The notes: a model not told the origin generated them from the sequence alone. A stretch of DNA of 64,000 nt from Escherichia coli (GCF_003334405.1 NZ_QOWM01000003.1), one strand, 5' to 3'. Shown: positions 17,865 through 23,633, counted from the first letter of the stretch. A program made the numbers and translations.

Positions 17865-20800
17865 ATGCAAAGGAAAACTCTATTGTCGGCCTGTATTGCA
17901 TTAGCTCTGAGTGGTCAGGGTTGGGCGGCAGATATCACAGAGGTAGAAACCACCACAGGTGAAAAGAAAAATACCAATGTGACTTGTCCGGCAGACCCAG
18001 GAAAACTCAGTCCGGAAGAGCTTAAACGCTTACCCTCTGAATGCTCTCCTTTAGTCGAACAAAACCTGATGCCATGGCTTTCCACAGGCGCTGCTGCGTT
18101 AATCACGGCCTTAGCCGTAGTGGAACTAAACGACGATGATGATCATCATCATCGCAACAATTCTCCACTCCCACCGACACCCCCTGATGATGAATCAGAC
18201 GACACTCCAGTTCCCCCAACTCCTGGCGGAGATGAGATAATACCGGACGATCCGGATGATACGCCTACACCTCCCAAACCGGTTTCGTTTAATAATGACG
18301 TTATTCTCGATAAAACAGAAAAAACGTTAACTATTCGCGATTCAGTTTTTACTTATACCGAGAATGCTGACGGGACTATATCTCTGCAAGATAGCAATGG
18401 TCGTAAGGCAACGATTAATCTTTGGCAGATTGATGAAGCGAATAACACTGTTGCCCTTGAAGGGGTGAGCGCAGATGGCGCAACGAAGTGGCAATATAAT
18501 CACAACGGTGAGCTTGTTATTACGGGTGATAATGCCACAGTAAACAACAATGGCAAAACCACCGTTGACGGTAAAGATTCCACCGGTACGGAAATCAACG
18601 GTAATAACGGGAAAGTGATTCAGGACGGCGATCTGGATGTCAGCGGCGGCGGTCACGGTATTGATATCACCGGTGACAGCGCGACGGTGGATAACAAGGG
18701 CACCATGACCGTCACCGATCCGGAGTCCATGGGTATCCAGATCGACGGTGACAAGGCCATCGTCAATAACGAAGGCGAGAGCACCATCACCAACGGTGGC
18801 ACCGGCACCCAGATTAATGGTGATGACGCCACGGCAAACAACAACGGCAAAACCACCGTTGACGGCAAGGATTCCACCGGTACGGAAATCAACGGTAATA
18901 ACGGAAAAGTTATTCAGGACGGCGATCTGGATGTCAGCGGCGGCGGTCACGGTATTGATATCACCGGCGACAGCGCAACGGTGGATAACAAGGGCACCAT
19001 GACCGTCACCGATCCGGAGTCCATCGGTATCCAGATTGACGGCGACCAGGCCATCGTCAATAACGAAGGCGAGAGCACTATCACCAATGGCGGCACCGGC
19101 ACTCAGATCAACGGTAACGACGCCACCGCGAATAACAGTGGAAAAACCACTGTTGATGGAAAAGATTCCACGGGTACCAAAATCGCGGGCAATATCGGCA
19201 TTGTAAATCTGGATGGTAGCCTGACTGTTACAGGCGGTGCGCATGGTGTTGAGAACATTGGTGACAACGGCACGGTTAACAACAAAGGAGATATTGTTGT
19301 TTCCGATACTGGATCGATTGGCGTGCTCATCAACGGTGAGGGGGCAACAGTATCCAATACGGGTGATGTTAACGTTAGCAATGAAGCGACAGGGTTCAGC
19401 ATCACAACCAACAGTGGGAAGGTTTCGCTGGCAGGCAGTATGCAGGTTGGCGATTTCTCGACCGGGGTAGATCTTAATGGCAACAATAACAGCGTGACGC
19501 TGGCGGCAAAAGATCTAAAAGTGGTCGGGCAGAAAGCGACGGGCATAAACGTTTCTGGCGATGCGAATACAGTGAATATCACTGGTAACGTTCTGGTTGA
19601 TAAGGATAAAACCGCAGACAATGCGGCGGAATATTTCTTCGATCCATCCGTGGGTATCAACGTTTACGGCAGTGATAATAACGTGACGCTGGATGGAAAG
19701 TTAACTGTTGTATCAGACAGTGAGGTTACTTCTCGTCAGAGTAATTTATTTGATGGCAGCGCAGAGAAAACGTCAGGTCTGGTTGTGATTGGCGATGGCA
19801 ATACCGTTAATATGAATGGTGGACTTGAACTGATTGGAGAGAAAAACGCGCTTGCAGATGGGTCGCAGGTTACTTCCTTGCGCACAGGATATAGTTATAC
19901 CAGCGTTATTGTCGTTAGTGGTGAGTCGTCGGTATATCTGAATGGAGATACGACAATCAGCGGAGAATTCCCTCTGGGGTTTGCCGGGGTTATTCGGGTA
20001 CAGGATAAAGCTTTGCTGGAAATTGGCAGTGGCGCTACGCTAACAATGCAGGATATTGACAGTTTTGAACATCATGGGACAAGAACCCCAGAACTTACTT
20101 ATGCTGATTCCGGTGCGAAAATTGTTAATAAAGGTACTGTTGAAATTCAGAATTTAGGTTTTGCTTTTGTTACTGGTGAAAATACAACAGGTATAAATAG
20201 TGGCACGATCTCGTTATTACAAAATGGTAAAGATCCGGCACCGTCTCCCATTGTTTTACTGGCTACTAACGGAGGGAGCGCCACTAATGCAGGTACGATC
20301 ACAGGTAAAGTGACGGAACAACATAGCGTATTTAACAAGTATTCAACGGGCACATCGAATTCATTTATTTTTAATAACGATGTCAGTAGCATAACAGGGT
20401 TAGTCGCTCAATCGAATAGCACAATTATCAATACTGACAGCGGCATCATTGATTTGTATGGTCGTGGTAGTGTCGGCATGCTTGCTATAGCAGATTCAAC
20501 AGCAGAAAATCAGGGTAAAATTACACTGGATTCTATGTGGGTAGATGCAAATGACACTACCGCAATGCGAGATATAGCTAGCAACAGCGCCATTGACTTC
20601 GGTACAGGTGTGGGAGTTGGTACTGATAGTTATAGTGGTGCAGGGAAAAATGCAACAGCAATTAACCAATTGGGCGGTGTTATAACTATTTATAACGCCG
20701 GCGCAGGTATGGCGGCCTATGGCGCCAGCAATACAGTTATTAACCAGGGGACGATTAACCTCGAAAAAAATGGTAATTATGACGATAGTCTGGCAGCAAA

Positions 20801-23633: not shown

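Follow-up and report, generated by a model that had tools for sequence, protein, structure and literature searches.

The ydbA locus of Escherichia coli raises a simple question: is the gene that lies in pieces in K-12 still whole in a close relative and, if so, what does it encode? According to a 2016 paper, ydbA is an autotransporter pseudogene in K-12 MG1655 and is full-length in ~42% of phylogroup A (PMC4951805). We analyzed a 64,000-nucleotide (nt) stretch of E. coli DNA (GCF_003334405.1, NZ_QOWM01000003.1; hereafter the window) that includes this locus. An initial annotation, made from the sequence alone, had proposed that ydbA is a single uninterrupted gene here. Indeed, the ORF listing and the translation revealed one open reading frame (ORF) of 1922 codons on the + strand (17865–23633), running from ATG to TAA, with its sole stop at the end and a product terminating in NFKKTF. 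An in-frame, stop-free run of 1922 codons excludes a chance origin. We therefore consider it highly probable that the window carries the intact, pre-insertion allele of the chromosomal gene located between paaY and pdxI (ydbC), and that this allele encodes a type Va autotransporter of 1922 amino acids (aa).

Integrity of ydbA and the K-12 insertion sites

The features on which the comparison with K-12 rests are the following.

17865–23633, + strand: ydbA coding sequence (CDS), whose product is a type Va autotransporter of the BigA/YdbA family; differs at one position from the annotated CDS WP_001573416.1 (strain P13-6)
20084–20088, + strand: empty target site AACCC of insertion sequence (IS) IS2, a sequence that flanks IS2 on both sides in K-12 (comparison with K-12)
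20136–20138, + strand: empty IS30 target site ACT, of which 2–3 bp are duplicated in K-12 (comparison with K-12)
23188, + strand: the sole single-nucleotide polymorphism (SNP) relative to restored K-12 ydbA, at gene nt 5324 (GCG to GTG, A1775V), in the predicted beta-barrel domain
18519–19400, + strand: tandem array of three units, each 294 nt (98 aa) long and in frame; identity is 93% between units 1 and 2 and ~62% for unit 3

For MG1655 (NZ_CP010438.1), RefSeq annotates two ydbA pseudogene fragments with IS2 and IS30 transposase genes between them, just as the initial annotation had stated. Using BLAST and base-by-base extension, we placed the K-12 copy of IS2 (1331 bp; 5-bp target duplication AACCC) after gene nt 2224 and IS30 (~1221 bp; target duplication of 2–3 bp) after gene nt 2274. 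Between them, 50 nt of ydbA sequence remain. When these junctions were aligned, the window sequence turned out to be continuous across both sites. Removal of both elements and of one copy of each duplication from K-12 ydbA restores an open ORF of 6063 nt (2020 codons), which has zero mismatches to the intact CDS of strain MSB1_9I (WP_001326908.1). In a global alignment, the window gene differs from this restored K-12 gene in two respects only, a 294-nt gap and one substitution. The substitution, A1775V, is absent from K-12, MSB1_9I and P13-6, and is private to the window among the sequences compared. With the annotated intact RefSeq CDSs the window gene shares 99.98% identity.

The surroundings of the gene are almost those of K-12. 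Outside ydbA, the window and MG1655 are distinguished by 22 SNPs and 0 indels over ~62 kb, and the order paaX-paaY-ydbA-pdxI-ydbD is retained. All K-12 derivatives sampled (MG1655, C600, XL1-Blue, HB101, J53 and others) carry both IS2 and IS30 in ydbA, in agreement with the earlier proposal that the source is not a standard K-12 isolate. The source is a close, phylogroup-A-like relative of K-12 in which the two ydbA insertions never took place. Since there are no indels relative to MG1655, the window should also share the frameshifted gapC pseudogene of K-12 and its IS200/IS605-type tnpA remnant with insQ (TnpB).

The 294-nt gap corresponds to exactly one unit of the tandem repeat, which is present in three units in the window and in four in K-12. 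Unit 2 of the window is a hybrid that matches K-12 units 2 and 3 at 96.3% and 96.9% identity, respectively. This is the pattern expected from a single in-register unequal crossover; K-12 units 2 and 3 are themselves 93% identical and have a 123-nt identical run in common. Thus, in-register crossing-over of units 2 and 3 would have removed one 294-nt unit. The number of units ranges from 1 to 10 across strains: one in E26, two in alleles of 5475 nt, three in the window, four in K-12 and MSB1_9I, and ten in STEC388. Moreover, uninterrupted ydbA alleles of exactly 5769 nt occur in ~23 complete genomes, including NCTC86. We considered a disruptive internal deletion and rejected it, because the missing 294 nt are exactly one in-frame unit of a repeat that varies in copy number. 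The in-frame loss of precisely one unit, the natural range and the many genomes with the same length all point to an ordinary length allele rather than a lesion. The initial annotation had named an internal deletion relative to intact orthologs, or a frameshift, as what would speak against an intact gene. One unit is indeed absent relative to such orthologs, but the reading frame is kept and no lesion results.

Could the three-unit array instead be an artifact, with one of four near-identical units collapsed in a (probably short-read) draft and a true gene of 2020 codons? Over 7769 nt, the window has the same sequence as contig QOWM01000003.1 of the draft assembly GCA_003334405.1, and the 93% identity of K-12 units 2 and 3, together with their 123-nt identical run, might favor a collapse. 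So might the hybrid assembly of the K-12 derivative J53, which likewise has three units despite the four in K-12. However, the complete genomes with alleles of exactly 5769 nt speak against a collapse, as do the ~7% of positions that differ between units, which are resolvable with 150-nt paired reads. The existence of alleles with 1, 2, 4 and 10 units shows, in addition, that the copy-number variation is real. We therefore regard a collapsed array as very unlikely, and the gene would be intact in either case.

The J53 locus is an observation in its own right. In NZ_CP068706.1, the match to ydbA with its IS2 and IS30 spans 8328 nt (2310855–2319182); 5769 nt plus the two elements account for this length, which implies three units and not the four of MG1655. 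The array may have contracted during K-12 descent, or a unit may have been collapsed in the J53 assembly.

A gene may also be open and still functionally impaired, if the loss of a repeat unit or the private A1775V blocks folding or secretion. In favor of impairment, A1775V is unique among the compared sequences and sits in the translocator domain. Yet the exchange of Ala for Val is conservative, a three-unit passenger falls within the natural range of 1–10 units, and the same allele without the SNP is present in strains such as P13-6. Impairment of this kind seems to us hardly credible.

Predicted architecture and export

The signal peptide, linker, Gly/Asn/Thr-rich passenger and C-terminal beta-barrel ending in Phe that the initial annotation had described were all found. 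Their positions, together with those of additional elements, are as follows.

17865–17927, + strand: Sec signal peptide, aa 1–21, consisting of MQRK, a hydrophobic core and GWA, with cleavage before AD (sequence inspection)
17985–18044, + strand: Cys-x18-Cys loop, aa 41–60, with C41, P42, L48, L56 and C60 invariant (homolog alignment)
18075–18128, + strand: second hydrophobic, Gly/Ala-rich stretch, aa 71–88 (WLSTGAAALITALAVVEL), conserved in the family (composition, alignment)
18129–18281, + strand: Asp/His/Pro-rich low-complexity linker, aa 89–139 (P 29%, D 25%), highly variable in length among homologs
18282–18524, + strand: BigA_N small beta domain (Pfam PF25784), aa 140–220, full model length, E-value 7.2e-33; ~90 in the predicted local distance difference test (pLDDT) of AlphaFold2 (AF2)
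22335–22586, + strand: BigA_beta beta-sandwich (Pfam PF25783), aa 1491–1574, full model length, E-value 2.7e-25, at the passenger/translocator junction
22737–23630, + strand: translocator, with a predicted pore-spanning alpha-helix (aa 1625–1643) and a predicted 12-stranded beta-barrel (aa ~1652–1920) ending in KKTF (Pfam, AF2, Foldseek)

The N-terminus, MQRKTLLSACIALALSGQGWA, resembles a signal peptide. By inspection, it has a basic n-region (MQRK), and its small-x-small cleavage site is conserved in an alignment of 13 homologs. The linker, which contains NDDDDHHHRNNSPLPPTPPDDESDD, leads through BigA_N into a passenger made up of 14–17% Gly, 11–13% Asn and 10–12% Thr. The AF2 model of aa 1–330 shows a confident BigA_N followed by a regular short beta-strand repeat (aa 221–330, pLDDT 85–97); this modeling covered 110 of the ~1270 passenger residues. 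Bearing on a beta-helical passenger, which type Va proteins characteristically have, some RefSeq records name the YdbA protein 'pectate lyase-fold' or 'beta strand repeat-containing'; Foldseek, as described below, found no significant PDB match for the N-terminal model. Two further passenger domains, BigA_3rd and BigA_4th (PF27417 and PF27415), are assigned by precomputed matches on the identical protein and on all close homologs. These assignments are precomputed only, as our own Pfam profile search returned neither domain.

At the C-terminal end, the Pfam Autotransporter beta-domain (PF03797) matches aa 1696–1892 with an E-value of 3.5e-18. An AF2 model of aa 1438–1922, based on a 13-sequence alignment, comprises a beta-sandwich, a long helix and 12 long strands; the strands at aa 1493–1572 lie within BigA_beta, and the barrel has a pLDDT of ~70–90. 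Foldseek found the best PDB matches of this model among the beta-domains of EstA, AaaA, EspP, NalP, BrkA and Hbp (E-values from 2e-8 to 3e-4). The chain ends in VMLNFKKTF, and the terminal Phe is invariant in 13 homologs, three of which have one extra Arg after it. Cysteines of the mature protein are confined to positions 41/60 and 1025/1030. Such few, closely spaced pairs fit the known tolerance of the type Va pathway for cysteines in the passenger (PMC3546941). Taken together, the signal peptide, the PF03797 match, the predicted barrel and the C-terminal aromatic residue indicate, at the level of sequence and model, that the protein is a classical (type Va) monomeric autotransporter of the BigA/YdbA family.

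In the type Va scheme, the protein is exported by Sec, its barrel is inserted by the beta-barrel assembly machinery (BAM), and the passenger is threaded through from the C- to the N-terminal end and folds at the surface. Applied to YdbA, the signal peptide would direct passage through Sec and be cleaved after Ala 21, and the 12-stranded C-terminal barrel would enter the outer membrane via BAM. The passenger, comprising BigA_N, the 98-aa repeats, the long beta-strand-repeat region and BigA_beta, would then be threaded out with its C-terminal end first and fold on the surface, where it would most likely mediate non-fimbrial adhesion or aggregation. By analogy with what is established for type Va proteins, YdbA is thus expected to be secreted, to be exposed on the surface and to serve as an adhesin. 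Celik et al. described the BigA passenger as 'AIDA-I-like' from clustering (PMC3419190), so that a functional resemblance to the self-associating autotransporters AIDA-I and Ag43 is possible. In our Pfam scans of aa 1–1100 and 901–1922, no AIDA-type or pertactin-type passenger repeats were detected, the only matches being BigA_N, BigA_beta and Autotransporter.

Several observations weigh against an intact gene for a typical, surface-exposed type Va autotransporter. The C-terminal AF2 model is of moderate quality, with a mean pLDDT of 67 and a predicted template modeling score of 0.53, and a PDB sequence-profile search with the C-terminal alignment gave no match at E ≤ 0.01. Foldseek comparison of the N-terminal model with PDB returned nothing significant (best E-value 0.07), leaving the BigA_N fold and the beta-strand repeat unmatched. 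The conserved hydrophobic stretch at aa 71–88 is unexplained by the standard type Va model. The literature searched contained no experimental evidence of YdbA or BigA expression, secretion or adhesion. Finally, ydbA is often inactivated in other strains, by IS2/IS30, IS3, IS1/IS1A or ISKpn26 and by the split seen in O157:H7.

The hydrophobic stretch belongs to an N-terminal region (aa 1–139) that is conserved in all full-length relatives found, including those from Escherichia albertii, Citrobacter, Enterobacter and Rahnella; among 1.84 billion proteins, 60 representative clusters matched it. Within the stretch, W71 and G75 are nearly invariant, and its hydrophobicity exceeds that of the signal-peptide core in every homolog whose N-terminus is complete. 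The length of the linker that follows ranges from ~20 to ~170 residues across homologs. AF2 modeling of aa 1–139 gave pLDDT values below 50 throughout and hence no confident structure for either the Cys loop or the hydrophobic stretch. We found no description of the module formed by the Cys loop, the hydrophobic stretch and the acidic linker in the literature searched.

Two other readings of the N-terminus were rejected. A lipoprotein reading of LSAC (aa 7–10) would leave a signal peptide of 9 residues, which is too short, and the Cys is missing in several homologs. We also did not adopt, as the primary interpretation, aa 71–88 as the true core of an extended signal peptide, because in all homologs the well-conserved small-x-small motif follows the first hydrophobic segment and not the second.

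A further idea is that the BigA/YdbA family is a mechanistic variant of type Va, whose members all share an N-terminal module placed between a cleavable signal peptide and the passenger; we consider it unlikely. After secretion, such a module could anchor the far end of the passenger in a membrane again, drive oligomerization, or insert into a target membrane in the manner of VacA. A hydrophobic stretch within an autotransporter passenger is unusual, and Helicobacter pylori VacA, in which such a stretch forms membrane channels (PMC4926140), provides a precedent. The parallel is one of analogy only. VacA has an exported type Va passenger with a hydrophobic, Gly-rich stretch near the mature N-terminus, and the predicted passenger of YdbA likewise has such a stretch. 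The two are unrelated in sequence. In mature YdbA, ~50 residues precede the stretch, which has the Cys loop on its N-terminal side and the acidic, Pro-rich linker on its C-terminal side.

Expression, distribution and significance

The flanking signals that bear on expression of the intact gene are listed here, along with the RNA genes detected in the window.

17598–17853, + strand: AT-rich upstream intergenic region (~38% GC), 3′ of the paaY terminator; presumed promoter region
17854–17858, + strand: Shine–Dalgarno-like AAGGA, 6 nt 5′ of the ATG (direct sequence reading)
23656–23686, + strand: terminator-like hairpin CCGCAAC, 10-nt loop, GTTGCGG, followed by seven T, 23 nt 3′ of the stop codon (read from sequence)
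41063–41126 and 41686–41837, − strand: RydC and sok (hokB locus) RNAs, respectively (Rfam)

The hairpin 3′ of ydbA was unlisted by the terminator scanner, which takes loops of 3–8 nt only. With a ribosome-binding site, an intact ORF and a terminator-like hairpin all readable in the DNA, expression of the window allele is plausible. The intergenic region between paaY and ydbA is 330 nt long and AT-rich (~38% GC). In a promoter scan of 17400–24000, 11 sigma-70-like sites were found where 10.8 were expected from shuffled sequences, so that no promoter could be named.

These features bear on another possibility, namely that ydbA is intact and cryptic: ordinarily silent in transcription, for example through silencing via the AT-rich upstream region, decaying as it is in many other lineages, and without a phenotype in the source strain. 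The low GC content upstream and a promoter signal not above chance are consistent with it, as is the frequency of independent inactivations across E. coli, which argues that ydbA is dispensable in many niches. In strain MLI108K1, for instance, an IS3 lies at the 5′ end of ydbA, and O157:H7 TW14359 has two CDSs, of 1011 aa and 819 aa, in place of one and lacks the paa operon. In a K-12 rpoZ mutant, the ydbA transcript and RNA polymerase occupancy rise, as they do for prophage genes and other genes of horizontal origin, suggesting that ydbA is normally held low (PMC5811629). According to a recent preprint, the conditions that induce most Salmonella adhesins have yet to be identified (PMC13228587). 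On the other hand, the 5.8-kb ORF is still open, and Escherichia, Citrobacter, Enterobacter and Rahnella have retained the residues specific to the family, implying that the protein is under selection at least in certain settings. On balance, we see a cryptic ydbA as a possibility to be taken seriously, if a somewhat doubtful one. It is also compatible with an intact autotransporter gene, as the product, if made, would still be an autotransporter.

How typical is an uninterrupted ydbA? The K-12-type central segment is present in 1238 of 5426 complete E. coli genomes, and 849 of these have an uninterrupted IS site; the remainder are mostly K-12 derivatives, split at the exact IS2 site. Intact alleles are frequent among wild E. 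coli, with hundreds of genomes carrying annotated copies, and as such are already known. In RefSeq they appear as 'BigA/YdbA N-terminal beta-barrel domain-containing protein' or 'autotransporter outer membrane beta-barrel domain-containing protein', and the exact window protein is already in NCBI (WP_204763587.1). Several ydbA-type autotransporter genes are annotated in RefSeq as 'EntS/YbdA MFS transporter', which looks like a mix-up of the names YdbA and YbdA propagated in databases.

The window represents the ancestral, IS-free state of a K-12 pseudogene, flanked by DNA nearly identical to that of MG1655. It therefore offers a handy natural intact ydbA for studying an uncharacterized autotransporter in an almost isogenic background. 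Its practical value is limited, and existing knowledge is unchanged, given that intact alleles are annotated and the pseudogene status in MG1655 is published. Only the copy-number variation of the 98-aa repeat and the conserved N-terminal module might merit more work.

Two observations concern the neighborhood of ydbA. A small ORF of 21 codons lies between paaY and ydbA (17638–17703, − strand); it is annotated as WP_010723099.1 in K-12 and P13-6, and we take it to be ynbG. A SNP at 17701 turns its start codon from ATG into ATA in the window, and GCA_003334405.1 has the same base. An Rfam scan of the whole window found no RNA family within or adjoining ydbA. Its only matches, ~17 kb downstream, were the small RNA RydC and sok, the antitoxin RNA belonging to hokB, in keeping with this region of E. 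coli.

Relation to BigA and other known systems

Is the window protein simply BigA? We rejected this identification, because the protein scores 1073.9 bits against the NCBIfam model NF033178 (auto_BigA), for which the curated cut-off is 3400. By sequence, it is YdbA, a sister or paralog of BigA. The two have much in common: the same set of domains (BigA_N, BigA_3rd/4th, BigA_beta and the barrel), an end-to-end alignment of the C-terminal 800 aa of YdbA with the BigA model, and the N-terminal Cys loop, hydrophobic stretch and acidic, Pro-rich linker. In contrast, N-terminal identity to BigA-named proteins (Salmonella/Enterobacter type) is 34–46%, and the chromosomal locus is different.

The predicted YdbA translocator resembles the solved type Va translocators (NalP, 1uyn; EspP, 3slo/2qom; EstA, 3kvn; BrkA, 3qq2; Hbp, 3aeh) in having a 12-stranded barrel behind a long helix, with Foldseek template modeling scores of up to 0.66 when normalized to NalP. 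Celik et al. placed the BigA barrel in the NalP-type group (PMC3419190), which agrees with these matches. However, sequence identity between YdbA and the solved translocators is 13–16%, and the passengers are unrelated, being proteases or esterases in those proteins and beta-strand repeats in YdbA.

The annotated intact ydbA alleles (WP_001573416.1 of P13-6 and WP_001326908.1 of MSB1_9I) are the same gene, that of P13-6 being one nucleotide apart and encoding 1922 aa. Differences among intact alleles are allelic only, affecting the number of repeat units (1–10), the length of the linker and the total length, which extends from 1673 to 2608 aa. The K-12 pseudogene, lastly, occupies the same locus in the same synteny and, once the IS elements and duplications are removed, is identical to the window gene but for one repeat unit and one SNP. 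As it stands in K-12, it differs in carrying IS2 and IS30 and four 98-aa units, whereas the window gene has neither element, three units and A1775V, and forms a single open CDS.

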